The notes under the pieces: model-generated
The model's database searches: none
The model's input: the letters and a program-made list of their open reading frames with translations, nothing else
Told to the model about the DNA's origin: nothing
NCBI GenBank assembly: GCA_951804945.1
Contig: OX638150.1
Span: 38,750,001 to 38,814,000 of the forward strand
From: Podarcis cretensis
Lineage: Eukaryota
DNA: 64,000 bases
Direction: 5' to 3'
In this document: in pieces, positions 8,701 to 53,093 of the stretch
How positions within the stretch are numbered: position 1 is the stretch's first letter
How the letters are laid out: each line of letters starts with the position of its first letter
Translations under genes and position numbers: made by a program

Positions 8701-11700
8701 AAGCCAAGATTTGTTCTTGGCTTCCTGGCCATGGTTTGCCTAAGTGAAACAAACCACAGCTCCCAGTTCAGACAAAATACTAATGCAGGGATTGCAGTTT
8801 GTTGCTCCTGCTCGCCATAGGAGACGAGCAAAGTGAAAGCAGTCTGTGTTCACAATAAACTATAGTTAATGTGCAAATTGGGCCATCACATGTCAGATAG
8901 TAATTGAATATAAGTTGGCCAATCAGTATAAGTGATGACATTCTAAATGAAAGCTCCATGATTAAAGGCAAGTTTTATCTGATTCCTTGGGGGGGGGGGT
9001 TTGAAACAGAGTGTGGTTATTACATTCATGTCTTGCCTGTGACTTTCCTAAGGTGTCTTGTTGCCCCCTACTAGAGACAGAATGCTGAACTAGGTACATC
9101 ACTGGTTTGTTGCAGCAAGGTCATTATGTTGTACTCAATGATTATGACTGAGCACAGAAGACTGCCATTTTCACCATTCACATTTATATACCTGTGAATT
9201 TTCACGAGTGCAGCTAGTATAAACCTATCCTCTCAGTTGACCATTGGGCTTCAGCTAGTTGTGTATTGAAAGAAAGAAATGAATGCAGAGGGTCAAGTGC
9301 CCTATAGTTTCATGGATTACTATGCAGGCCTCAACAAGTCACTGTTTTCTCAGTTCCACTTCTGCAAGTGGCAAAATACACACACACACACACACTAGCA
9401 TGTTACATTTAAAAAGTCATATGTGACTTCCAGTGTTTTGTGAATGCATTATCCACAATTTTGGGGCAAACATGAATCTTCATATTGGGCACAAAATGTA
9501 GCAACCTGAATTTCTCATGTCTTATTTAAAAATAGGATTATTATTTATGTTCAGAGAATGCTTAAGAGAAACCTCAGAAACCAGAGAACGACTCACTCAG
9601 CAGGATTTTCAGTGGGGAGGGATTGAAGTATTAGTACCTTGGATATGTGCTTGCTCCTCCTTACAACTAGAAAAAGTGACATAAATTATGCAAAAAAGAA
9701 AAGTAGGCAAATTGGGTTTATCTGCATTATTTAGACAAGCTGGAGAAACAACATCTGCCTGTCTCTTAAACTAAGTCAGATATAATTCTGCGGTGAATGG
9801 TGAAAACAGACAGTAATACTTGCACATGTACAGTATACCCAGAAATACAAATCTAATATTGGGAAGCCTTCATGATGCATGTACTTATATAACTTCGGAA
9901 AGTACATGTGGGAAACTTCCTAGCAAAATCACCATTTGTTCTTAACATTTTGTTTAAAGTTAATAACAAACTAATACTTAACCTCTGTAGCTGACCTGAT
10001 CTGGACAGCCACCTGCTAATGCTTTACTGATGTTTTGGACAGTACTGTATAGTACAACTTTGACTTTTCCAAAAGGTATTAGATACTGACAAGAAAACAG
10101 GTTATTGGAGTACTGTCTTTGCAACTCAGGCAGTGATTTAACCTTTTACTTGGTGTTTGAGGGTGTTTTTTTTAAATGAACATGAAATGTGATTTTTAAA
10201 GGTTGTGCAAATATCTATTTTCCAGAAAATGAACTAGAACTTATCTTTTTTGCTTTAGGCTTTCAGATAAACTTCTGTGAAAAAGCACAAAGTAAGCTAC
10301 ATGTTTTATAGTATTCTGCTATTTTATTTTACTTTATTTTTATATCATTCTTGGTACTGGGAATGTGTCCACTGTTGATCTAACTAACCAGCCATGCATT
10401 AATACATGGGCAGAGCTTCCATTTTTCATCTTGCTACCCAAATCTAATTCTGTTGTTCTGTCAATAATTCTTTAGTATCTCTTATACTTCTTGGATAGTA
10501 AACTAGAGGTCGCATAGATAGTCGCTCCTAAATTGTAATGAATGAAAGATTTAAGACTTTTATAAAATGAAGTGGAAATATAGATATTTGGGGTTTAATG
10601 GTGTCTAACCACTTAGTGAAAAAGTAATCATAGGAACTGAGAGGATTATTTCAGAAGGGGCCCAAGTCACCTTCTTGTTTCTGCTCTTGTTTTAAAGTTT
10701 GGCATGAACTGCTTTGCATTGCCCTTGATGGCGTGACACAGTAAACCCAACAATGGTTCGCATTCACTTTGCTCCAAACCAGTCAGTTTGGTATAGCAGT
10801 GATGCCAAAGTTTGGCTTAACAGGTCATCTGAAGGTGGGATTGTGCTTAAACTCTACGCTCCTCAACTGTGATGTAGTCAAGAGTAAACCTTGGCTACAG
10901 ACCATGATTAAGGAGGAGATAACTTAACCATAGATCAGTGTGTGGATGATACACTAAGCCAACCTTGGCTTTATTGTTGTGCTAAGCTAAAATAATCAGG
11001 GATGATCAAAGCGGTTGCGTTTTCCCTGGGAGCTAGCATGTTTGTGGTAAGTCATGGTTTGGCTTAGTGTTACATGGGAATGCGACAACTGTCAAGCCAT
11101 CAATCCAGTAGTGTAATGTCTAATCTGATTGGCACTGGCTCTCCCAAGATCTCATGGAACAGTCTTTCCCCTTGCTACATGAGATCATTTGAGTGGAGAT
11201 GCCGAGCTTCTAACTTTCGTCATGCAAAGCTTGTCCTCCGCAACTGAATCAAGGTATTCTACTATGGGCTCTGGTTGTAATTTAAATGACCCAGTAGTGC
11301 TCTCTGTGTACCTTTGGAATGATAACTTTTGAAAACATGACTGGATACATCACTTTGAAACTGACGTCTCTATAAAAGTCAGGAAAAATTGTCAGTCACT
11401 ATCATCCCATGTTTGGATGATTAATGGAAGCTCTGCACAATGAATTTTTTCATTGTTTCATTCTCTTATGGCATTCATTTTTTTAAATTGCTATGTTCAT
11501 TATATCGTTATGATTGCCTGCCATGCTTTAGTGGGAACGTTATTGGAGACAAAAACAGCACTGCTAGCATTCCCCCCTGCCCCTTCTACTGGGTACACCT
11601 TGTATAGTTAAACACATCCGTCTTGCATTCAGGCTGCATATATTTTTCATTTTTATTTGAAGCTAATGGATATGCATATTTAATTTTGAAATGATGAAAT

Positions 11701-14700: not shown

Positions 14701-17700
14701 AGAAGAGCTAGAAGTTAAAATGTGAGACATAGGGACAAGACCTGGAAGGTGGGGATGGTTCTGTACATCCATCACAAATTAAGGAAGAGGCTTGTCCTTT
14801 TTCATACTCCATTCTATCCTTTCCCCTTATTTGGAATCTCAAAAGGCAGACCAGGGCAGTGCTACTCAAAGTGGTGGTCCATGGATTTGTGCTCGTCTGC
14901 AAACCATCAGCTGCTGGTCCACAACAACTCCACCACAGCCCAAGCTGGGAGGGATGTTTCAGGGACCAAATATGGTACCAGTTCCTGGCACATCAGTGGG
15001 GTGGGAATTGCTGGTCCACCACATCAAACAGTTTGAGAAACACTGGACTAGGGAATGCTTTCAGGACAGCTATTTTTCTGCTGTCTGAATACTTAGCTTT
15101 CAATACTACTCATGAAACAAATCATCAGAGCTTGTGAAGAATTTCTGTAAAGGGGAACAGTATAGTCTGGCATTACATTTAATATAGAGATAGTGTTCTT
15201 CATTGTGCCTTTTGGTTGAAGATCTTTAGGTTATACTACTGATATTTATTCCCAGCTCATCCATAACTAGGACAGCTACATGTACTATTTTTGTTAATCA
15301 ATACGAGATTCTCTTAGCAAAATTCGTACACTGTGGTTTAAAAGAGGTCCTTCCTTCTCCTGCATAGCAAAGTGTTTTATTGAACTATGTGCTGCTTCAA
15401 AACCCAACCCTCTAGAGTAGATTTTCTGGGGGAATGAAGGAAGGCTTGAATAAAATCACATGTCTCTTCTGCCTACTGGAGAATCCTTTGAGAAGAGCTA
15501 CAGTCATAGGATCTCTGGATTCAAGCTCTTTCTTAGATCTATAATGCCTTATTTGTCTTTGTCATCACTAACTCCCATTTTGCACCACTGAAAACATTAA
15601 TTCTTGGGAAGCACAAAAGGAATTGTCTGCTTAGCCCTAGAGTTGCCCTCCAAAGGGGCCAGGCAGCAGAATGTATTGATGTCCAAGTGGCATCCTTCTA
15701 AATTATTGGTCCTAAAGCTAAATTCTAAACAGAAAATGTGGGAATAGTATGCACAGAAGACAGGTATGAATATGGGTTGGTTGTGCACAGCATTCTTTCT
15801 AGTCTCTTGGCTGGACTGTCTTTTTATTGATTTAATACCACTAATCTCCATGTCTACTGTTGGGAGGAGCAGAGATCAGTATGTAAATCAGTGCAGTTCC
15901 CATGTTGAATGTGAATATTGAGTACGTGTACTGCATCCAACAACCAGTACCCTACAACAAGGCCTTATTCTTCAAATGTGATCATTTTTGTTTGTTTGTT
16001 TCTCCCAATTTTTTCTGGAACAGAATACAATGATGGCATTCGTGTACCAGGTTCTGGTCTTGTAACAGCATCATTGTAGTTTCTGGGGAAGACAGAAAAG
16101 GCAACCCTGACCTGCAATAATGTTATCTGTGCACCAACCTGGTGCATAATGTGTGTATACAGAATCAAGGAACTGAACCCAATGTTTATTTCATATGTAC
16201 TGCTTAAATCTGTAGACACAGGCCAAGTCACAAAAATCAGGTTAGACTTTTAATAAAATAGGTATGGAGGTTTTTTGAGTGGTTTTTTTTTTTTTAAGTA
16301 GAAGTGTTTTCTGTTCCAGGCATATCTAGAATTGCATTCAATTAGATAGGCTTCCCAGCTTTTCAGAATTAATAGCCCAATGTTGCAGGTGTATATGAGT
16401 TAATCCTCTTGTTCTTGCAGCATCAGAAATAGAGCCTTCATCTTCATTTCCTTGTGAAGTCACTTGGGAGGTATGAGGCTCTGGTGGTGTCACACAACAG
16501 TGTGATGTCAACGAAAGCTAGCAGAAATTACCTAACTAGTTTTAGTGTCATATATCCATAGACTTGGGTTTATTAATTGGGTCTTGTGGGGTTCCTCTGA
16601 TTTGGGCCTTTCTGGTATTATCTGAACCACTAAGTTGCTGATACCATCTTTCCTGTTAGCATGCAGAAAGCAGTGAGGAAGATGCACTCCTGCAGTTGCT
16701 TTTAATCTACTGTTTAGATATGTCAGTGTAGAGTGGTATGATTGAGGCTTTGTGGTAAGCCATATGCCTTGAGCTTGTGCAAATGAAAAGTTTGAATTAG
16801 CTGCTATATATGTGCGTATGCATGTGTGTATGAAAGAACATGAGGGTAACAGAAGAGCAATACAGCAAAAACAACTTGAGGTTAAAATGCATGCCATGTT
16901 GGTTTAGTTGAATTTCTTGCTTACGTTAGATACTGAGATGCAGGGCCCAGGTGCTTAAGACCATACTGCACAATCCTATACATGTTGACTCAGAAGTAAT
17001 TCCCATTGAGTTCCGTAGGGTTTACTCCCAGGTAAGTGGTTATGGGATTGTAGGCTAAATCTAGCAGGCAGATTTCTGAAGTGTCCAGTTGATTACTCTC
17101 CTGGAAATAAATCCCATCAATTCACTTCCTTGTTAAAGTGTGTTGGTATTAATGTGTCATATGCCAATCATTCCTATGCATTGCAAGGGGGTTGAACTAG
17201 ATGATCCTCGTGGGTCACCCTGCAATTCTATAATTCTGTGATTGAATAACAGAAATGTTCATAAGCTGTTTTTAAAAACTTAGGTCAGTTCATCCCTTTG
17301 CTAACAAAGGAAGTACATTATTTTTAGAAATACTCAAATTTTGCATCAGAATTTTAATTCTGTTATTGAGTTAGGCAATTTAAATTCTTTTCCTCAATGT
17401 GTTAAAATAGATCAAGTTTAATCCAGACATTATTTCCATAACCTGTCTGTCTGCACAAAACATTTATTATTGAAGTTTGCTAAGTGGAATCTGTGCTATG
17501 GTGCCTCATTAATCTCCTTTACTTCTTCTCAAACTGGGGCTTCCTGCTTCCTTGACATGAAGACTGTTGCTGTGAGGAGATAGGAGGTATGAAAAACCAG
17601 ACAGTCAGTAAACATGGGGTGTTCTCGGCGCACTTCATTGCAGAATACATGGTAGTAAAATGTTTGATAGGCTCAACTTTAAGTTCAACTGCAGCTTTAA

Positions 17701-20700
17701 CTTGCCACTTGTTATAGTTGTGAGATACAGCAATGTATTTATGCTTAGGAAACTTACACACATTTATAGATGCTATATGTATTAGTATGCCAGCAGATTC
17801 TTCTTCTTTTTAAGCGAGGAGTTCCCCATTGCCCATTGGCTACAAAAAAAGCACATGTACCTACTAGTATCTGCAAGTATGTCCTTACTCTCCTGCATTC
17901 ACACATTCGGGCTCACAGATACATGTGCATATGCTAGCATACTCCTATATGCACACTGATCTACACATTCTTTCTCATGCCCAGAATGTTTTCTCAGTTG
18001 CATGCAGACCTGCACATCTCCCTTCAGTAGGCAACAGTATGGGCTTGTTTTTGCTAGTTACTTTTGCTGGATTTTGTGACCCAGCTACATCACGTAGTGG
18101 TAATTCAAGCTACAGTCAAGGCTGTGTTCCTGCCCATTTTTATTGAACCGTGTACACATCCTATGCATGTTAGTGCTTCAGAATAATGAGGTGATATATT
18201 TTGACCCTTGACCTAGCAATATTATCAAAAATATGAATACATGGGAAATATTTTGCGGCTAGCCACCAGCATTAAAGGAAGGGGTTTTAGTATAATTGTA
18301 AAAACAAGAGCATTTGTAGACCAAAGAAGCTGTTTGTCAGATTCAGACTTGCTCAGTGGCTCAATTTGGTGTTAAGTTCAGAAGCCCTGTCCAATGACTA
18401 ATCTATTGATATTGCAATATTAAATGTCATTGTGTATGTGAAATGTTTCATGTAGGGAAGAATATGTTACATTTTTTGGTTCTGGTTTATTTTGGATGCT
18501 TTCAATACAGTAATACATGTTCTCTTGCCGACAAGAGTGTTTTTTGTGTGTTTATCTCTCAGGTAAGCGCAGAGCACTGAAGTTGAATTTTGCAAACCCA
18601 CCTTTCAAATCCACAGCGCGATTTACTTTGAACCCTGGAGTTCCTTTTCAGAATCCACACATGTGAGTATAAAGCCAGAAATTCCACCAGATGGAACCAT
18701 TTTGAAGTAGGAAGATAAAGCACTTTCCTTTGTCACACAAATTTTGTAGGCAGTTCAAAAGATAAAATTGTAGTCTGGACTGAGACGTAGGATGTTCTGT
18801 TTATGTAACATTTTCTCATGTATTTTTGGAACTTCAAATAAGCTGTTTTACCTAAAGGCTTAAAGTAAGACTACTCCTTTGAACTGTACCAAAAAAAAAA
18901 AAAGTCCTGTCATTTGCTGGCAAGTCATCTCCATATGGCAGAGGTAGCTTACCTGTAGTCCTCCAGATATTATTGAACTACAAATTCCCATCAGCCCTAA
19001 TGAGCGTGACCAAATGTGGCCCCACGCTGCCAACCACAGTTTAGCCACTCCTGCCTTATGGTTAATCTCACTCACGGACTGCTTAAACCTATGCCTGCTG
19101 CTTTTCAAGTTTGCAAAGTTTTTATTCCTGTATTTGATTTTAAGATATTTGTGTGAGACATCTTAGTTTTAAAATTGAGGGGATTCTTTTTTTTAGAAAT
19201 CTAAGAGGTGGTGAGAAGTTACTAGAACCCTGTAAGTCTCCAAGAAAGGTGTTACGGACAGCCTTATATACAGATTCAGTGTAAATTGGAGTATCCAACA
19301 ATTGGTTGTTTAATGCAGCAGAATGTCTCTTGAAATACAAGCCTTGTGTCCTCAGATCCACCAATCTGGACTGATGGGTAACTTCTCAGGCTGTGCAGTC
19401 AGCATCTCCTTTATATTGCCTTGTGAGGTTTTTGAAGTCCGGCAGAGTAAAAATCCTCAGAGCCTTGTGCCTGTCATTCCTCCAGTTGCTTGTACTTCCT
19501 TTGGACAATTCTGCCATGTATGTGTGTCTGTATGTTGCGGCTTTGTTCATATAGCTCAGAGCTTTCTATTTCCTATGAATATATCCGTTTCATTTCCTTA
19601 TTTAGAAACTCTTCCTTGTTTTGATTCTAAAGCTATCCAGGTAATTATAGATGGACTTTGGAAAAGTATTCCTGTTACTTATAAGGTCAGTTCTGAAAAC
19701 CAGAAGATGCAGATATTTCAGTAGACATTCTTCTAAGATGTCCAGTTTCTCATCCAAAAAGAAGCGAAGCAAGGTTCAGCCTGCAGAGTTCTGGCATCCA
19801 GCAGTACCACCATTTATAAAATGCCATATTAATTTAAGGACTTAGGACTTACTCCCCATGTTAGAATATATAAGCTAGCTGGACACAATCTTTTTACAAT
19901 AACCTCATAGGTCCTTTCTCTATGTAGTGGTTCTGCACAACTTTTGTCTTTCAACTTTTTCTCTTTGATAGATTTCACCTTCGTAAGACCTTTATTCTTA
20001 GTAAGTTAACTCATCACCTTCTAGTGACTTTCTTTAGTAGTGATATTTTTCATCCAGTGACTTTCTGAACAGGAATTTCTGTAGATAATAGCTGTTCTTG
20101 TCTGGCAGTTCTTCTTGCATCTAATAATAAAATCCCTAATTTCAGGCTCATCAGGCAGCTGGTGGTATTGCTTTGAACTTAAGACTATTTTGATAAAGTA
20201 GGTTGGACAAGGGGAGAAATAAGTTTTTTCTGCAACAGCCAGCTTCCCAAATATTGTGTTAGGGTTTTTTCTAGACCACCCACTGTATAGATAAATATAT
20301 CTTACATTTTATACTGAACATCATCAATAATCTGTTTTGAGAATACACTTGTTATGTAGTCTGTGAAAGGAAGTCTGTTTCTTTTATAAAATTTGTGTTG
20401 GGTAGTTCTTTTGAAATAGGAAAGGCTTGTTTTATCCATTTGTCCCCCTCACCTTTACAAACTCCTCATTTAGTATTTAGGCTGCAATCCTGTACCTGCT
20501 TACCTGGGAACAAGCCCCACTGAAGTCAGTGGGACTTACTTCTGAGTAGTCTTGTCTAGCATTGCACTGCGAGTGTTCAGTGGTTAATTTTTTTATCTTA
20601 TGTCTCAGATTTATGAAGGTTTTCTTAGGAGCTGGTATGTTAACAAGTAAGGGTCATAACATTCAAAAAAATCTTAAATTCTTTTTGAAAATCTTTTGCT

Positions 20701-23700: not shown

Positions 23701-26700
23701 TTCAGAGTACCTTTGTTGAACAGCCCCAGAATATTTTAAAACTCTAGCTGGAGAACTGGGCCCCCCCATGTCCTTTTCATGCAGCTTCAAACTTCCCCTC
23801 AAGGGTTGGGGCAGGCACCTTCCAACTCAGGTTTTTCTTTTTCCTTGACGAAGGTTCAGGATTTAGAAAAGTAAAATCTATGCAGAGAGAATTAATTCCA
23901 GTACTTTTTTTTTTGACAAGAATTATAGAATTATTATATTTGAGTAAAGACTGTCTCCATGCCAACCATTACAATTCGCTATATTTCACAATAGAGATCG
24001 CCGGAATGATTATCAGATATGGTGAGCTCATCTCCACTGTCTTAGACAAGGTTCCTTATCATTTTACTCTTCCGAAGGATGCTTTCATATACACGTTGCT
24101 TTAGGAACAGTGATACAACCCTCGCAGTTGCCTAAGGCATTATTTATCCTGTGTATCTCACCTTAGATCCTTGAAGAAGATGCCTTAAGGACTTCGTTTC
24201 TTCTCTTACTTTTTTGAATTTCTAGGAAGGGTCATTGTATCCACCCCCCATTCCTATTGGAAACCTCAACACTACTGAGAGATCAGAATAATTTACTTTC
24301 TCTCTTCTTATTTGTGAGCCTCTGGTTGGATTTTCCTTTTTTGTGGGGGGCAGGAATCCTAAGAAGCAGATCAGAGAAGCAGCATGGCAGATCTCTGTGT
24401 CCCCCTCTCTGTCTCTCCTTAATTAGCAGAGGACTCAAGGAGATTTTGATGCATCCCTTTTCCTAACAGTCTTGACTTGACCGTTGGTTTTTATGTATGT
24501 AAACATACTGAATCTTCCTCCCCTGTTTGTCCTGCCCCTGCAAAGGGGTAGGTTTTGTTAGTGTTAGAAGAGGAGATTTCTTACCTGGAAATACTTGTGA
24601 GAGATTCGGATCCAGAAACTTCCTTGTTCCTCACACAATCACAGAGTGGACAGTGAAAGCTAGCTTCTAGCTCTTCCGGTTTCTTAGGGAAGAATTCAGT
24701 TCACTCCAATCTAAATAAGTAGGGTAATAGTTACTTCTCCTGATTGGTGGATCCAAGACACAAGCACTAGTTTTCAGGTAAGAAATTTACCTTTATCAAA
24801 ACAATATGATGAAGCAATGTAGTGGTAAACAATGTAGCAAATTGTGACAAAGAAGGTCAGTGGCACTAATTAGTTGATTTTAGCTAGCAATTTAATTGCA
24901 GGTATGTAGTTCATAGGACAAAAGGAAATACTGCATCTGAAATTAAGGCTGGCATGCTATTCCTAAATGGTCTTGCTTGGAGGTAAGCCCCATTTATTTC
25001 CGAGGGATTTACTCTCAAGTAAGGTGGCAGCGGATTATAGCCTTCCATGGCTTTCATGCATTAGTATGAGTGGTTCAAAAAGGCTTTAAATGAACTGCCA
25101 CACACTTTGCTTTTTTTCCTTTTTCCAAAAAGAGAGGTATAGACTAGCCCTTAACAAGGAACTGAAATGTGCTCATTTTGTATATAAAAGGCAGTCTGTC
25201 TTTTCAGTTACTATGTGTGTATGTGTTATTGTGTCATGTGATAACAGCACTGTGTTTTCCTGTCATTTTTACAACTCTTTCCTGGCTGAAGTGATACACA
25301 AGCAACAATGGGTAGTAATCACATTGCCCCGTTCACTTTCAAAAGGAGAGAAGCGGAGATGATCGTGAAACTTTCCAGCAGGCTACAGTAAGCGTAACTG
25401 TCTGTTAGCCCCATTGTCAGATATTTTCATAACAGAAAAAGCAAAAGAAAGAAAAAGGCATGAACACCAATATAGATCCTTGCAGAAATTTGTCATATTA
25501 TGAGTGAATTAATATATATATATTTAAATTATTAAATACTTTCAACATATATTTCATTATTATTGTTTAAAGCTTATTGCTGCATTCGTATTAGCAATTT
25601 CCAATGTTCTGTCCCAGCTGACTGTCATTGACTCTAGAAAGACAGTGTATTTTTTTAAAAGAGTACTGGTATTCAGAGGGTAACTCAGTATTAGTTTACA
25701 AAAATCTCTCCTTTTAAAACCATAAATATTTAATTCTCAAGCATGGTTGACCATAATGGATGGAGTTGATGCAGGTGTTATAAGGTTGTTGCATATTGTC
25801 TCCAAAAAGCCTTCACTGATAGAACAGCTCTAAAACCTGTGAATCAGGTTGTCTTTTGTGAAGTATTATTTCATTTTTGTAGCTGCCATACTTCCAACAC
25901 CTATTGATCTGTAAAACAGCCCCCCCCCCAAACAATTAATGGACCAGTGAAAATGAAACGTATGCTTCTGGTGAAGTAAGCCTGAGGCACAATTGAGGTA
26001 GAATCTACACACTTATAAAAACCGTTCTGGAAATGCTTTTTTAAAAGTGTTTTTTTAAAAAAATACATTGAATTTTCCATAAGGCTCGTCATCACCAACT
26101 AGTGTCACATTGTATATTGCACTTAAAACACACTTAAAATGTTTTATTTGCAGCTGTATAGATGAGTCCCAAGGCAACTGAAGAGTTGCTGTCCATTGCA
26201 CGGGTGTTAGATTTTGTTCTGAATTTTCTTAATTTATAAGTAATTCATATTGGCTTTGAGTACTTCTAAAACATTTTAACATAACATTATAGCGAGTCGT
26301 GGAGGATACGGAAACATTCTGAGAAAATCAAATATTTTCATCAATTTGGCGCAGTTCATCAGGTCCAAATTTCTGAGTCAGGCAATGCAGTACATTTCTG
26401 GGTAACTAAAATGGTGTGACCTTAAAGCTGCTCCCCCAAACAATGCAAATAACTGTGCTAGTTCCATGTTTACCCTTCCAGGAGAATAAAGAGTCTTCTC
26501 TAAGGTCCCCTGCCTCATACTCACTGACAAGAAATAGTTAAACTTGTAATTTAGGAAATTAAACCAATCCTCATATAAAGGAAATTGTATTTTTATACCA
26601 TATTTTAGATCGGACTTAAAACTCCATAAAAAGTTATAATAAGAGAATCTATTTCCTTAAAATATTTTTTGCTGAATGTGAAATTGTAACTTAGTGGTTT

Positions 26701-29700: not shown

Positions 29701-32700
29701 ATCTGAAGGGTTGATTAATGATAGAATCAGAAACGGTATCTGCCTTTGACTTTAAGATAAAAATATTGGAATTCCACGGAAACCTGTTAGATATTGTTTT
29801 ATTCATTACTTAACCTAGAGGGAGGCGGGGTCCTAGCTGAGCAGCTCAGGCTTGTGACAGTTTGGCCACATCTATCCCAAGGTTATCAGGGTGGGGACAA
29901 GCCATTTGAATTCTTTGACATGTCACTGATGTTTGAGTCCTGGGAATCTTGTCTTAGCAAGATGGTGAGCTATGCTCTTGTTATATGTGTGTTATTTTGG
30001 GGTATTTAAGTAACTAGCCATAATGCCCCCCCCCAAATTAGTCATACTATGATGATGTCAATATTATTTGTATGAATTTTCAGTATCCTAGGAGTAGCAG
30101 ACTTTGGGAGCAGTGTATGTTTTTGTAAACAGGTTCTGGATGTTCAGCCTTGTAGCTGCAGAAGACAATTAGCAGGACATCAGTTTACTTTTTTGTAGGA
30201 TCTGGGGTGTCTGTTTCCCTATAGGTTGTTTTTTCTCAGGTTTATTTAAAAGCACGAGTATTTCATATTACCAGTATCCTGCAATGTGCTAGAAGATTGG
30301 GAGCAATTAATGCCCAACACCTGTGTAATGTGATTTCTAAGACAAATTGCTTTATCTTTAGCAGGTGCAAATGGCAAAGCTTACAATCTATTTATTCTTT
30401 TTTGTTTCAGCTTCTCTCAGCTTCTAAATTCTTTTCTTTTCCTTTTTCATTCATTAACATTTTGTAGAAAGGTCTTGTAGGTGGTTTATTTATGACACAG
30501 ACAGGAATTCAGAGATGCTGATAGATTATTTTTTTGCTCGGTATTATGTTGCCTCTATATTTATCTTGTATAGCTGAATCTATATTAAAGATGACATACC
30601 AAGATCAGTGAATGATGGAGAAAGGGAGAGAGATACTTCATCATCTTCAGAAATTGGTGTTCTTACGTAATGCCAAGCCTTTGTATTGCACCGTTCTGTA
30701 TTTCCTCTTTTGTGGCAAACTGCAGTTGTAAGCCATGATCAAACCATGGTTTGCATTTCAGATTGCAGACAAACTTTGGTTTGCACAAACTGTTTTTGCC
30801 TATTTGGATGTAACTGCAAACTGGTTTGCCACAAAAGAGGATGTGTAACAGTGTGCAAGGGGAGGAAGGTGTGTACATGCCCAAGGCTCTGTTTGAATTG
30901 AGCCAGTGTCTAGGAACTAAAAAGCCTTAGGTCAAGCCTTTTTGCTATCTAATATTCTTTCATTGGTTTTAGAGGGTCTTTCTTGAATTCATGTTTGGAC
31001 TTATTCCAAAACTAGTATTGCAGTGCCTTTGTTGAGTTTGCTAAGTAATTTGATTAATTTCCCATAATTTTACTTGAGTGATTACTTCTGAAGTATTCTC
31101 TGCTCTTACCATAATCACAGTTTGTGATAAATGTACAAATATCCACATTAAATTTTCAGCTATCAGGTTTGACAAGTTCTTTGATTCAGGGCTGAGAGGA
31201 AGGGCTTTAAAACTATGAAGCACTTCTAAAATTGCAGCTGAGGAGCCCAGAGTTTAACAGTCCAATCCTAAACATGCTTAATAATAATAATAATCTTACT
31301 GAATTCTTTGAGACCTTCCTCTTACAAAGTAAGCTTCATTTTCAAACATTTGACAGTGATGGGTAGAAGATACTGGAGACTTTCACATTTGTCTTGAGAT
31401 GAACACTGTTCATATTGGAAGACAAAAATAGAAAAACTGTATTTCTTCATGCAGAACCACTTGTCAGCAAGAAAAGAAACCTAACACAGCTGTGGAAGTC
31501 TGTTCGACCCAATGTAAAAAATATCCTTTATTACTGACGCAAAATTCTGCACACTTCTTCTAGCCTTAAAATATGCACCAGCGGCTTTGTGGCTTTTTGA
31601 CTAATCTTCTTTTACTTCAAAAATACACTGACAGAATATTGGCTCTGCGTGTATTTTTGGAGTTAACATGATCCCTTCATTTTTTCTGTTTTCTATTAAT
31701 ATTTATAAACTCTTCTTGGAAACCCAACAGCCACAGGTATGGGTTTTCTTTATGGTGTTATCAATGCAGGCAATAAAAGGAGAAAGACAATCACCAGCCT
31801 AAACTTAACTCTAGAAGAATATAGTTGCTTTATGTTACGTAGCATAACTAATATTATCCTTCTGCATTTCATAGGAATATAATACAGTTTTATGCAGGAA
31901 TTTATAAACAACCACAGAAATAGACATACAGTTATTGTAATATAAGAGACAGATGGTCTTGATTAATAGCTTTAAAAAAATCTAGTTGCTTTAGGTGCAA
32001 TTGTTTAGAGTATCCTGCCCTGTTACCTCCATCTAGATTAGATCCTTCATGGAAAGTATATTATTGCATTAGCTTTATGTTCACTACTCTGTATAAATGC
32101 ATTTAATCAGTGCTGTAAGAGAGAGAAAGTTTTCAATTGATATAAAATGTGGCAAAATTCCTTCCCAATTTTTTTTTGGCAGAGAGAGACTGAGAACACA
32201 CAGCATTGAATCATCAGGAAAATTGAAGATTTCCCCTGAACAACATTGGGATTTTACTGCGGAGGACTTGAAAGATCTTGGAGAAATTGGACGAGGCGCT
32301 TATGGTTCTGTCAACAAAATGGTCCACAAACCAAGTGGGCAAATTATGGCTGTTAAAGTAGGTGATGCCCGTAATTATTCTTGTACTTTCCAACTGCAGG
32401 GGCAATATATAGTGGATAATTTAATATCCATCCATCTTGCGCTCAGCAGTTGTTTTCTTTCCCCCGCTATCTGTATATTTTGCCTTGTAGTTTAGTGTTA
32501 TTAAATACTTAACTGGTTTGTAAAATTATGGGTTATAAAATTTAAGGAGAACATCTAATATACGTAAGCTTCTTTTTAACACAAACTGTATATATACTGA
32601 GACCCTTTATCTCTAGGTTCCTGGTTTTAAATCCAGCTCAGGTTTATTATTCTTAAATGCACTTTTGCAGTGGACAGGTCAGGGTCCTTTGTGAAACAAG

Positions 32701-44122: not shown

Positions 44123-44810
44123 CCCCACCCATCTGACTGGGCTGCCCCAGCCACTCTGGGCAGCTTCCAACAGATATTATTGGGCATTCTGTAGCAGCAC
44201 CCATTGCTATTCCCATTTTGTGAGATATGAGCTGCATTCTACCTGTTTAGTGCAAACAGTGAGGCTGGGCTTGCTATTTTGTCTTTTGCTGTGGTGAGCA
44301 ATGAAGCAAGCCCACATTTAGTTATTTAGTTCATTCAGGGGTTGTGTTGTGTATCTAGAGAATTAAAGTTTTTTTTTGCAATTGCACAACATATTTAATT
44401 GGTATAATTAAAATTTGATTTTGGGATTTGTCTGCTTCACCAATTATCCATTTCCTCCCAAACGTAAGGCCAAGGGATGTACTGTACCCCACCTGCCTTC
44501 TCTGTGTGTATATGCCCATGTTGATGCTTGGAGCCCTTCTACTGAATCTTGTGAGCTGGTACCTCAGCGCAGCAACTCATAACACCTGTTAAGTGTTAAG
44601 TTGCATGGAAGTACCTTTGGGAGCTCACACGTCTTCGGGAGGCACCTTCTGTGCTCCAAAAGTGAGACTATATTTTGTTCCCTTCTCTTCTACCAGAAAC
44701 ATCCCTTCATCCTAATGTATGAGGAGCGAACAGTGGACGTTGCGTGCTATGTTTGTAAAATCCTGGATCAAATGCCAACGACTCCGAGCTCTCCAATGTA
44801 TGTCGATTGA
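504..44810 (+). CDS. MAP2K4: MAP2K4 / MKK4 dual-specificity MAP kinase kinase 4, full spliced CDS (11 constitutive exons, 1161 nt, 386 aa; 397 aa with the microexon)
   Basis: join(504..582,18563..18662,32183..32357,35713..35832,37125..37244,37854..37905,38593..38720,40267..40344,41927..42075,43945..43990,44697..44810). All introns are GT-AG and phases are consistent. The translation contains the D-site [26 protein letters not shown], the SIAKT activation loop and the C-terminal PSSPMYVD. Confidence 0.98.
2711..2740. repeat. (TG)15 microsatellite
   Basis: Read directly. Confidence 0.95.
4377..4513. mobile_element. hAT-type MITE
   Basis: TIRs CAGGGCTTTTTTT / AAAAATAGCACTG; perfect 8-bp TSD ATTAGAAG; second copy at 58666-58791. 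Confidence 0.85.
5340..6158 (+). mobile_element. CR1 LINE 3' fragment (degraded RT C-terminus plus 3'UTR)
   Basis: CR1-type motifs (W-MQF---KCKVLH; [11 protein letters not shown]; gaaagggcaaccaaa) and a ttcttatgttctta tail. Confidence 0.85.
6260..6624 (+). mobile_element. Full-length Sauria SINE
   Basis: tRNA-like head with A/B boxes (gtggcgctgtgg; ggttcgaatccc), core ctgccaacctagcagttcgaaagca, and (ACCTTT)n tail; flanked by an 87-bp direct repeat. Confidence 0.95.
8231..8392. mobile_element. Tc1/mariner (Tc2-like) MITE
   Basis: Perfect 22-bp TIR CCGTATTTTTCTGTGTATAAGA; TA on both sides. Confidence 0.9.
10259..10291 (+). CDS. MAP2K4: MAP2K4 alternative 33-nt microexon, (G)[10 protein letters not shown](S)
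   Basis: tttttgctttag|GC TTT CAG ATA AAC TTC TGT GAA AAA GCA CAA A|gtaagc; phase 1-1. Matches the [12 protein letters not shown] insert I recall from the longer mammalian MKK4 isoform. Confidence 0.92.
12337..12610. mobile_element. hAT (Charlie-like) MITE
   Basis: TIRs CAGGGGTAGGCAACCT / AGGTTGCTGACCCCTG; TSD gactaggg/cactaggg; inverted copy at 56582-56832. Confidence 0.88.
14857..15045. mobile_element. hAT (MER5-like) MITE
   Basis: TIRs CAGTGCTACTCAAA / TTTGAGAAACACTG; TSD gaccaggg/gactaggg. Confidence 0.8.
18563..18662 (+). CDS. MAP2K4: MAP2K4 exon 2 (JNK/p38 docking D-site)
   Basis: ctctcag|GT AAG CGC AGA...; [32 protein letters not shown]; donor AT|gtgagt. Confidence 0.97.
20480..20569. 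mobile_element. About 90-bp palindromic squamate MITE-like repeat (other copies near 1280-1364, 4040-4110, 16965-17056, 24950-25042, 55647-55720, 61828-61897)
   Basis: Recurrent ggctgcaatcct...tactcagaagtaa...aggattgcagcc self-complementary unit. Confidence 0.75.
22881..23050. mobile_element. Probable Harbinger-like MITE (second copy 25996-26170)
   Basis: Two similar copies (gaatctacacac...ctagtgtcaca...tttgcagctgtatag) with imperfect TIRs. Confidence 0.65.
25346..25387 (+). CDS. Candidate 42-nt in-frame cassette exon of MAP2K4 (unconfirmed)
   Basis: cactttcaaaag|G AGA GAA GCG GAG ATG ATC GTG AAA CTT TCC AGC AGG CTA CA|gtaagc. Length is a multiple of 3 and it is open in the phase-2 frame of intron 2. 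Confidence 0.45.
25996..26170. mobile_element. Probable Harbinger-like MITE
   Basis: Homologous to 22881-23050. Confidence 0.65.
32183..32357 (+). CDS. MAP2K4: MAP2K4 exon 3 (kinase Gly-rich loop, catalytic Lys)
   Basis: [58 protein letters not shown]; ttggcag| ... |gtaggt. Confidence 0.98.
32735..32896 (-). mobile_element. Sauria SINE 5' fragment
   Basis: Reverse complement of the SINE head (gggacgcaggtggtgctgtgg...ctgccaacctagcagtttgaaa). Confidence 0.88.
35360..35485 (+). mobile_element. Old tRNA-derived SINE fragment (MIR/Squam3-like)
   Basis: gtggtggttaga...caggtttgaatcc...ctcagcctaacc..acagg-like layout. Confidence 0.6.
35713..35832 (+). CDS. MAP2K4: MAP2K4 exon 4
   Basis: [40 protein letters not shown]; AG/GT flanks. 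Confidence 0.98.
36335..36845. mobile_element. Tc2-like non-autonomous DNA transposon with GC-rich interior
   Basis: TIRs CCGTATATACTCACGTATAAGC / GCTTTTACTTGAGTACATATGG; TA flanks; internal repeats of ggcttatact. Confidence 0.85.
37125..37244 (+). CDS. MAP2K4: MAP2K4 exon 5
   Basis: [40 protein letters not shown]; AG/GT flanks. Confidence 0.98.
37854..37905 (+). CDS. MAP2K4: MAP2K4 exon 6
   Basis: [17 protein letters not shown](D); AG/GT flanks. Confidence 0.98.
38593..38720 (+). CDS. MAP2K4: MAP2K4 exon 7 (catalytic loop, DFG, activation loop)
   Basis: [42 protein letters not shown]. Confidence 0.98.
40267..40344 (+). CDS. MAP2K4: MAP2K4 exon 8
   Basis: [26 protein letters not shown]. 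Confidence 0.98.
40967..41191. mobile_element. Tigger/mariner-like MITE
   Basis: ta|CAGTGGACGCTCGGGTT...AACCCGAGGTATGACT; related to 51042-51264 in the opposite orientation. Confidence 0.8.
41927..42075 (+). CDS. MAP2K4: MAP2K4 exon 9
   Basis: [49 protein letters not shown](C). Confidence 0.98.
43945..43990 (+). CDS. MAP2K4: MAP2K4 exon 10
   Basis: [15 protein letters not shown]; ttag| ... |gtgagt. Confidence 0.98.
44080..44172 (-). mobile_element. LINE (L2-type) 3' tail with (TAA)n microsatellite
   Basis: Minus strand reads tgttggaagctgcccagagtggctggggcagcccagtcagatgggtggggta followed by about 14 TAA units. Confidence 0.75.
44697..44810 (+). CDS. MAP2K4: MAP2K4 exon 11 (coding part, DVD region, stop)
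   Basis: [40 protein letters not shown]. Confidence 0.98.
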   Translation, partial: KHPFILMYEERTVDVACYVCKILDQMPTTPSSPMYVD

Positions 44811-51041: not shown

Positions 51042-51264
51042 CAGTCATACCTTGGGTTGAATGCGCTTCGGGTTGAGCGTGTTCAAGTTGCGCTCCGCGG
51101 CAACCCAGAAGTAACGGAGCGTGTTACTTCCAAGTTTCGCCGCTTGCGCATGCACAGACGCTCAAAATGACGTCATGCGCAGACGTGCCATCGCTAGTTA
51201 CGTTTGCTTCTAGATGCAAACGGGGTTCCGGAACAGATCCCGTTCATATCTAGAGGTACCACTG
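51042..51264. mobile_element. Tigger/mariner-like MITE inside the inferred MYOCD 3'UTR
   Basis: ta|CAGTCATACCT...AGGTACCACTG|ta; CpG-rich interior. Confidence 0.85.
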
Positions 51265-53093
51265 TATAGGTAAATTATAACGTTCAATTGTTACTGTGGA
51301 CATTCAGCGGTGTAGTGAGGATCTGTTGCTCAAGTGGATCTGAGTATAGTTTGGAATTGTGGCTGAGGGCTGGGCCCTCACTTTGTGGTATAAAGGGAGA
51401 ACTATGGTTAAAACGAATAAAGGGTAGATATCTCACAACCTAGTGCTTTGCTCATTACCCAGACTTTGTTTTTTTATATGTAGTTGTGGAGTCATCACCT
51501 GGGTGAAGCCTACCCACATGTGAACAAAGGAACCCTACCAGGCTGGCAGCATTTGCATCTTCTTTTAATGAGGCAACATATTTGAGTGATACATTGCAAT
51601 ATTCTTGTCTGCCCTCAGGAAAGCAATGGTTAGGAACATAATGAGTATCTGGTGCTTGGTATGAAGCCCATGGGCTGGGAATTGGTTGCTGTGTAGCTGG
51701 GCCTGCTGTAGTTCTGCCTTGTACCAGCTAGCCTGACTTTGCCCTAGATGAAAACCTGGCAGCCTCCTTTTTGGGGTCTGCCCTGTGCAGTAACAGGTGT
51801 GAGCATTCTAGCAGCAGCTTGATGGTCATGTATGATACTGCATACAGATCTGTTGCGACATGTAGAGAAAACCCAGACTGCGTTCTGTACCATTACTGAC
51901 GGACTTAGATCTGGCAATATCTTAATTTAAAGACCGACAAAGGCCATAGGTTTAGGCTACAAGGGGTAAGTTGCCCAGTTTCTTCCACCGTGGTAGACTT
52001 AGTCGTAGATTTGCAACCTCCACTTGTTATGCTGATTAAACTTTGTCACTTTTTCAGATCGGCTCTGGGCAACATATTATTCAATATTATCAATTTATTC
52101 AAGACTGCCTGTTTATTAAACTGAATAAATTATTTGGTATATGAGGAGGAATGTGAGTCCTTCGAAGTGTTTTTGGAATTTGAAACAGAATTTAAATTGG
52201 TAATCCTTTCCATTTTTATAAGTTACGATTACTTTATTGCTTGTTGTAAATTTATTCATGACGATCTGATACACTCACAGGTTGGTTTTAATAGTGTGTT
52301 GAAATGCTATAGATTTATCTATATCAAATTATAGATATGTTTATATTTTTAATTTAATTAAGAAATGAGCAAAGTACTTATGAAGGGAGGAATGTACCCT
52401 GAAACAGAAAATTGATAGAAGTCGCCCCAGACTTCTAGTCAATTAAAAATCCTTCATTTATGTACTTGCTTTTTATATTACTCTGCATTCTTTTCAAGCT
52501 GAGTGCCCACCACATAAACAAGTCAGATTGGTTTACTTCTATTTCAAGTGCCTTTAAAATTGGTAAGACAGGGCAGAGAGAGAAGTGTTTAGTGAAAGGA
52601 TGGCTTGGAGGTTACTGGTCTGACAATGGCTTCTTCGTGAGCTGACTTTTTTTTAAGTCTTCATGTATAGAATCAGGAGGAAAGGCAGTGGCTGCCATGC
52701 AGTGTGTTGCAAGCTGTAAGTGAACCAAATTTTTCCCCACAGTAGGTAATAAGAGACAATATAGCAGAACCTGATCTGGATGATAGATATGTTAGGGATG
52801 AAATGGATGTGCATACCAAACATAATTCTGCTGCAGAGTGAGTCTTTCTTGGAAGCTACGAAAGTTAGCTGTGCTTGCTGAGGAGGAGACTCCTGCGCCA
52901 GAGATTTGCTTTGTGGTGTGTGGGAGATTATCTGGCAATTTCATTTGTAATAGGGGAGGGGAATGTCCTGGGAAAACTGACTCCAGTTTCTTCTCCCTGG
53001 CTGTCACCAGAGCTCTCTGATAAAGTATCTGAGTCTCTTTAATGGAAATCTGTTTGTGTTTAGCTGCATCCCCACACATAAGGCTTATTCTGT

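Follow-up and report, generated by a model that had tools for sequence, protein, structure and literature searches.

A probable optional exon in intron 2 of MAP2K4, conserved in squamates, turtles and birds, with a predicted role for its last 14 codons in lengthening the regulatory helix of MKK4

The closest described relatives of the exon analysed here are another exon of the same gene and a helix in related kinases. MKK4delta, a form of MKK4 with an extra 5' exon, is reported to change signalling output (Haeusgen et al. 2014, as cited in a section of PMC8699841), and two human MKK4 isoforms are given in sections of that review and of PMC12942867. The passages of PMC8638120 that mention human MAP2K4 splicing do so without the intron 2 exon analysed here. 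No description of this exon was found in the literature searched, which had subscription papers outside its scope. In MKK7, according to parts of 10.1101/2020.06.11.145995, the N-terminal helix sits against alphaC and promotes the active state; a regulatory helix of this kind is expected by the authors across the MAP2Ks. The free human MKK4 regulatory domain (residues 12-86) is described in a section of PMC8391806 as having no helix propensity by NMR. Phosphorylation of human MKK4 at Ser80 by Akt is described in part of PMC10487481 as inhibitory.

The window, the whole stretch of 64,000 nucleotides that was analysed, contains the entire MAP2K4 gene on the + strand, from an ATG at 504 to a stop near 44810, and the 11 constitutive exons give a single open frame of 386 codons. 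Exon 1 is equal to a Podarcis lilfordi protein at 23/23 aligned residues, and the source of the window is therefore lizard-like. The exons of concern here are exon 2 (18563..18662, +), which encodes the D-site and ends in phase 2, and exon 3 (32183..32357, +), which encodes the ERLRTHS motif and the start of the kinase domain. The candidate exon lies in the intron between them, in a stretch with a copy number of 1 in the genome.

Other features of the window were noted in passing. In intron 1 there is a 33-nt exon (10259-10291), also found in mammal, bird, frog and fish models, which we take to be the likely orthologue of the MKK4delta exon. A 24-nt in-frame exon candidate in the same intron (17563-17586) has a weak GAAG acceptor and a GTATGA donor, and encodes CCCEEIG, a three-cysteine run just before the D-site; it is found in models of Podarcis, Rhineura and a close relative (P0127), and among the proteins examined these are all squamate. 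About 7 kb after the MAP2K4 stop there is a SCARNA16 (Rfam RF00424, 143.5 bits) at 51670-51849. Near it is a CG-rich, promoter-like stretch (~51060-51260), and a GT at ~51271 could end the first exon of a non-coding host gene.

A sequence-only reading of this DNA had proposed a cassette exon of 42 nt in intron 2 (25346..25387, +), bounded by an internal AG (AAAAG, 25344..25345, +) and the donor GTAAGC (25388..25393, +). All of these elements are present, and the frame is open in the phase needed between exons 2 and 3. If the same donor is paired with an AG further upstream (GAAG, 25290..25291, +), the product is an exon of 96 nt (25292..25387, +; 32 codons, phase 2-2), likewise open and in phase, which is the form in the gene models of squamates, turtles and birds. 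The 96-nt frame is closed by a TGA just 5' and a TAA just 3'. It comprises a 54-nt 5' part (25292..25345, +), found only in squamates, turtles and birds, and the 42-nt core, which is common also to crocodilian and monotreme models. Upstream of the first AG, 28/37 positions are pyrimidines (25250-25286). The 54-nt part itself ends in a run with 13/17 pyrimidines (25325-25341) followed by AAAAG, from which we infer that it may be the exonised end of an old intron.

Splice sites were scored using a crude matrix made from MAP2K4's own 10 constitutive acceptors and 10 donors. The donor, already described as consensus by the sequence-only reading, ranks 17/825 among the GTs of intron 2. Both acceptors are weak AAG sites: the upstream AG scores 3.6 (rank 98/903 among intron 2 AGs) and the internal AG, weak as had been claimed of it, scores -3.1 (rank 399/903), the constitutive acceptors scoring 9.0-17.6 on their own matrix. 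Four other intron 2 donors pass the same filters, making a total of 8 AG-GT pairs on 5 donors, and the anatomy of the exon alone therefore decides nothing; by itself it is not beyond chance. Two open, in-phase pairs in the intron, 24470-24547 (6.5/9.6) and 30411-30476 (14.2/7.5), outscore the exon on this crude measure; they occur in none of the proteins examined and are probably pseudo-exons. The cttttcag at 25208 was rejected as an acceptor: its score is 0.9, the 180-nt exon that it would give contains a stop, and it is not part of the conserved island described below. No Rfam family was found at the exon site.

The conservation of the stretch is beyond chance. When metagenome contigs were scanned with a short motif, two matches were obtained. 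One, L001, is a chance match, its blastn comparison with the window being empty; the other, L002, is a bird-type contig that encodes the bird-type insert peptide at 32/32 residues. When the 6-kb locus of L002 was compared with the window by blastn, the sole match was an island of 204 nt at 25225-25428, with 89.7% identity (E 7e-73). Beyond the island, identity is ~42-49% (40/96 further upstream, 40/82 further downstream). The sequence-only reading had staked itself on the AG and GT sites and the frame being kept in other reptiles or birds. In L002, which is one other genome only, both AGs, the identical GTAAGC donor and the open frame are all retained, and the 96-nt and 42-nt units, both multiples of three, are stop-free in phase between exons 2 and 3 there as in the window.

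Identity within the island is 63/66 in the upstream flank (25225..25291, +; UG-rich, then a pyrimidine tract; one 1-nt indel) and 35/39 in the downstream flank (25388..25428, +; one 2-nt indel); in the exon between them, the 5' part is identical at 49/54 positions and the core at 36/42. The alignment has no gap columns in the 96 exon bases and three in the flanks, from two frame-breaking indels of 1 and 2 nt. The upstream flank (95%) is thus conserved above the exon (85/96, 89%). Conserved intron flanks and low synonymous change are described in PMC1543662 for conserved and regulated alternative exons, and the flanks found here fit that pattern. We regard the upstream flank as a probable splicing-regulatory element. 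The 11 substitutions in the exon fall 3/3/5 by codon position, and 6/9 changed codons are non-synonymous, mostly conservatively so; selection of the codon type is therefore weak.

UG and YCAY sequences can be read in the conserved flanks. Exons activated by RBFOX have a conserved TGCATG downstream; TGCATG is absent from 25000-25900 and from the corresponding stretch of L002, and the GCATG at +71, which had been offered as an RBFOX core, is present in the window and missing from L002. Neural microexons of the SRRM4 type are very short and have a conserved UGC shortly 5' of the acceptor. Here the modelled exon is 96 nt, and the TGC that had been pointed out about 20 nt upstream of the internal AG is there in the window and is TGT in L002. 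The exon thus belongs to neither class as judged by these features.

Public protein models were then considered. Of 466 proteins gathered, the exon 3 motif is present in 303, among which 251 also have an exon 2 that could be classified; clades were set by the exon 2 signature, and the other 52 proteins were left out, including P0125, which has the insert. A 32-residue insert is present in 30/68 of the squamate, turtle, bird and crocodilian MAP2K4 models with exon 2 (5/7 squamate-type and 25/61 bird/turtle/crocodilian-type proteins), in a sample steered to insert-bearing clusters, so that these ratios are not inclusion rates. In P0131 (Tiliqua) and P0127 the insert is 100% identical to the 32 residues of the window. 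Every squamate, turtle and bird model that has the insert has it in the 96-nt form, which revises the size first proposed. The exon was also not unrecognised, as had been claimed, since it is already in many RefSeq XP_ and UniRef models. Predicted pairs from Motacilla (X1/X2, 531/499 aa) and Meleagris (X1/X2, 455/423 aa) differ by exactly the 32 residues, and platypus X1/X6 (412/372 aa) by exactly the platypus insert; inclusion and skipping forms therefore coexist within one species, in predicted models only. All of the protein support for the exon is of automated origin, and the models may be copied from one another. Such gene models rest partly on RNA-seq introns. A search of sequencing runs with five words sampled from 25292-25387 listed 24 runs, 20 of which contained every word, and no RNA run was among those listed. 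When contigs of four of these runs were aligned to 24900-25800, through a filter that can discard such contigs, one short piece fell on an AT-rich stretch, none fell on the exon and there were no joints, a result that counts neither for nor against splicing.

Conservation and models together uphold the proposal of a lineage-restricted, in-frame cassette exon between the D-site and RLRTHS. We are in little doubt that 25292-25387 is a real exon, and the 96-nt form is very probably the main one in the lizard of the window.

The core has a wider distribution than the 5' part. In 5/5 crocodilian proteins with exon 2 and in 2/3 monotreme proteins (platypus and echidna) the 14 residues stand behind other peptides, and the codon immediately following the internal AG is where homology starts in both lineages. 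The 5' peptides of the crocodilians and of the monotremes have no relationship with one another or with the 5' part of the sauropsid exon (local scores 9-12, p 0.6-0.99). Within the core, REA and KLSSRLQ are invariant over squamates, turtles, birds, crocodilians and monotremes, and the four central positions vary, mostly conservatively. Turtles and birds, between which the crocodilians are nested, have the 54-nt part in common, and the simplest reading of the crocodilian models is therefore that a separate exon further upstream is joined to the internal AG. On this comparison of sequences, crocodilians and monotremes probably do use the internal AG as an acceptor; alternatively, the boundary of the core would mark the start of a helix and not an acceptor. 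The acceptor first proposed is thus not the edge of the exon in squamate, turtle and bird models, and it is the exact edge of the core that is common to the amniote lineages. The core is absent from the 70 placental-type, 11 marsupial, 84 fish-type and 15 amphibian-type protein models (0 in each). Judged from these protein models, not genomes, the exon was likely lost in marsupials and placentals. The suggestion of the sequence-only reading that it was lost in mammals agrees with the therian proteins and fails for the monotremes, where platypus and echidna models keep the core.

It is worth adding that the crocodilian piece before the core (P0031, P0066, P0069, P0075 and P0191) is 38-40 residues long with a variable poly-alanine run, and as 0/5 proteins lack it, it may be near-constitutive. 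Inserts unrelated to the exon also occur at the exon 2/3 junction (proteins P0104-P0162, P0192, P0092, P0021), with lengths of 38 residues in amphibians (15/15, including a Xenopus NP_ record), 19 in mormyrid fishes, 58 in bichirs and 38 in rat. This junction is a repeated insertion point in the linker. The amphibian, mormyrid, bichir and rat inserts were rejected as homologues of the exon: in 40 pairwise tests the best p was 0.10, and profile scores lay within those of shuffles. When the crocodilian, amphibian, bichir and rodent insert peptides were compared with the window by tblastn, there was no intron 2 match beyond the core among the matches listed.

Inclusion of the exon lengthens the linker from the D-site to the kinase domain from 40-41 to 73 residues. 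The RLRTHS motif is wholly in exon 3 and is kept with or without the insert. AlphaFold was run on P0131 with 129 aligned rows, including MKK7-like rows which can bias the pose, and gave a model with a mean pLDDT of 78.7. The 5' part is predicted as coil (residues 63-78, pLDDT under 50), followed by a helix at 79-104, which runs from two residues before the core through the Akt site. This agrees with the earlier suggestion of a possibly helical peptide; the pLDDT is 57-58 within the core and reaches 77 for residues 101-110. The mean helix cost per residue is 0.33 for the core vs 0.88-1.14 for the 14 residues that it displaces. The amphipathic moment of the helix is not significant (p 0.08-0.12). 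In the short isoform there are prolines just before the ERLRTHS motif.

The best structural match of the P0131 model, among 1000 Foldseek-ranked chains that were re-aligned, is active MKK7, 6yg1_C (Z 38.2, rmsd 2.7, 313 aligned; next Z 35.8). Model residue 88 falls on residue 102 of that chain, at the start of the aligned range, which places exon residues 88-94 inside it; these positions are known as end points of the range only, and the MKK7-like rows may bias the pose. The insert has no sequence match in the PDB. The idea that it contains a second D-site or an export signal was rejected, as neither is conserved in birds and turtles when judged by eye against consensus patterns.

The explanation that we consider the best, and probably the correct one, is that of a conserved optional MAP2K4 exon of 96 nt, in which the last 14 codons would, as predicted, lengthen the regulatory helix. 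In this mechanism 25292-25387 is likely spliced as an optional, frame-preserving exon, and the proline-rich residues before ERLRTHS would be replaced by a helix-forming run. The run would continue through the Akt site to the position of the activating helix of MKK7, and inclusion could tune activation, Akt inhibition or JNK/p38 engagement. For the step in which the exon nucleates or extends the N-terminal helix of MKK4, which is based on the structural model, we hold the chances to be even.

It is possible, if on the unlikely side, that the exon is real and the peptide a tolerated spacer, with selection acting on an RNA element and on linker length and not on a regulatory helix. Intron 2 would on this account simply take unrelated inserts, as is seen at the same junction in all 15 amphibian proteins, in mormyrid fishes and bichirs and in two rodents; the conservation of the flanks, as high as that of the exon, and the low pLDDT of the helix point in the same direction. 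Against a spacer is the behaviour of the core, which keeps REA and KLSSRLQ from squamates to monotremes, the part preceding it having been replaced twice.

We doubt that the 42-nt exon is spliced alone from the internal AG in the species of the window, whether as the main form or as an alternative 3' splice-site form. The unit is symmetric as well as a multiple of three, L002 keeps both the internal AG and the pyrimidine run, and it is precisely at this AG, behind unrelated peptides, that the homology with crocodilians and monotremes sets in. In none of the 466 proteins, however, does the core directly follow exon 2; the score of its acceptor is near the median for the AGs of the intron, and the AG, which also forms part of an Arg codon when the 96-nt exon is translated, would be conserved for that reason in any case.

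It is very improbable that the island is a conserved non-coding element (an enhancer or RNA element) mis-modelled as an exon by gene predictors: the intron flank does have the highest identity, the acceptors are weak and the support is from predicted proteins only, but the indels are confined to the outside of the 96 nt, an open frame in the right phase extends precisely from splice site to splice site in both the window and L002 with stops in the other two frames in the window, there are isoform pairs with and without the exon within species, and the peptide is conserved as far as the monotremes.

The probable 96-nt exon may also have a history that can be read from the distribution of its parts. 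The 42-nt core would be an old amniote exon, the 54-nt part would have been added in sauropsids by way of the upstream AG, and therians would have lost the exon. A fuller version, which we put forward as speculative and rather unlikely to be right in all its parts, is that the core is an ancestral amniote exon coding for the N-terminal half of an MKK7-like activating helix, and acts as a splicing switch in reptiles, birds and monotremes. Each lineage would have a different 5' piece (by the upstream AG in squamates, turtles and birds, and by exons of their own in crocodilians and monotremes); the switch would have been lost in marsupials and placentals, and human MKK4 would have been left with a truncated, disordered version. 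No account of the dual-acceptor pattern and its link between monotremes and crocodilians was found in the literature searched, with subscription papers again outside its scope.

Finding the exon is not in itself a discovery, because the sequence is already in automated annotations. Its interest may be that two natural MKK4 isoforms, which differ in a half-helix predicted beside the Akt site, provide a natural experiment: the MAP2K regulatory helix has been proposed family-wide, and free human MKK4 does not show it. A comparison of the isoforms would be a direct test of an MKK7-like allosteric helix in MKK4. The locus also offers a clean case of a signalling exon conserved in amniotes and apparently lost in therians. 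A second, longer MKK4 is to be expected in chicken, lizard and turtle, which is relevant to work on JNK/p38 signalling in these animals.

The exon is thus of a familiar kind, already present as a model in databases and without a description in the papers searched. The same exon is found in the RefSeq/UniRef predictions XP_066470793.1 (Tiliqua), XP_061472421.1 (Rhineura), XP_048673248.1 (Caretta model) and XP_030143022.1 (Taeniopygia), and the insert isoforms in these databases are automated models without a functional description. The MKK4delta exon resembles the intron 2 exon in being a short cassette exon of MAP2K4 that keeps the frame and belongs to the N-terminal regulatory region; it lies before the D-site, whereas the intron 2 exon lies after it, is 96 nt long and is not seen in therian proteins. 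The 38-residue insert of amphibians (NP_001107157.1, Xenopus tropicalis) is at the same junction and gives a linker of similar length (76 vs 73 residues), its sequence being no closer to the exon than the pairwise p of 0.10 and the within-shuffle profile scores given above. Finally, the helix of MKK7 (PDB 6yg1) and MEK1 resembles that of the model in lying between the docking site and the kinase domain. In those kinases it is constitutive and seen in crystals, whereas solved MKK4 chains match the P0131 model only from residue 101, and the N-terminal half of the helix in MKK4 would be an optional element, predicted with a pLDDT of ~58.
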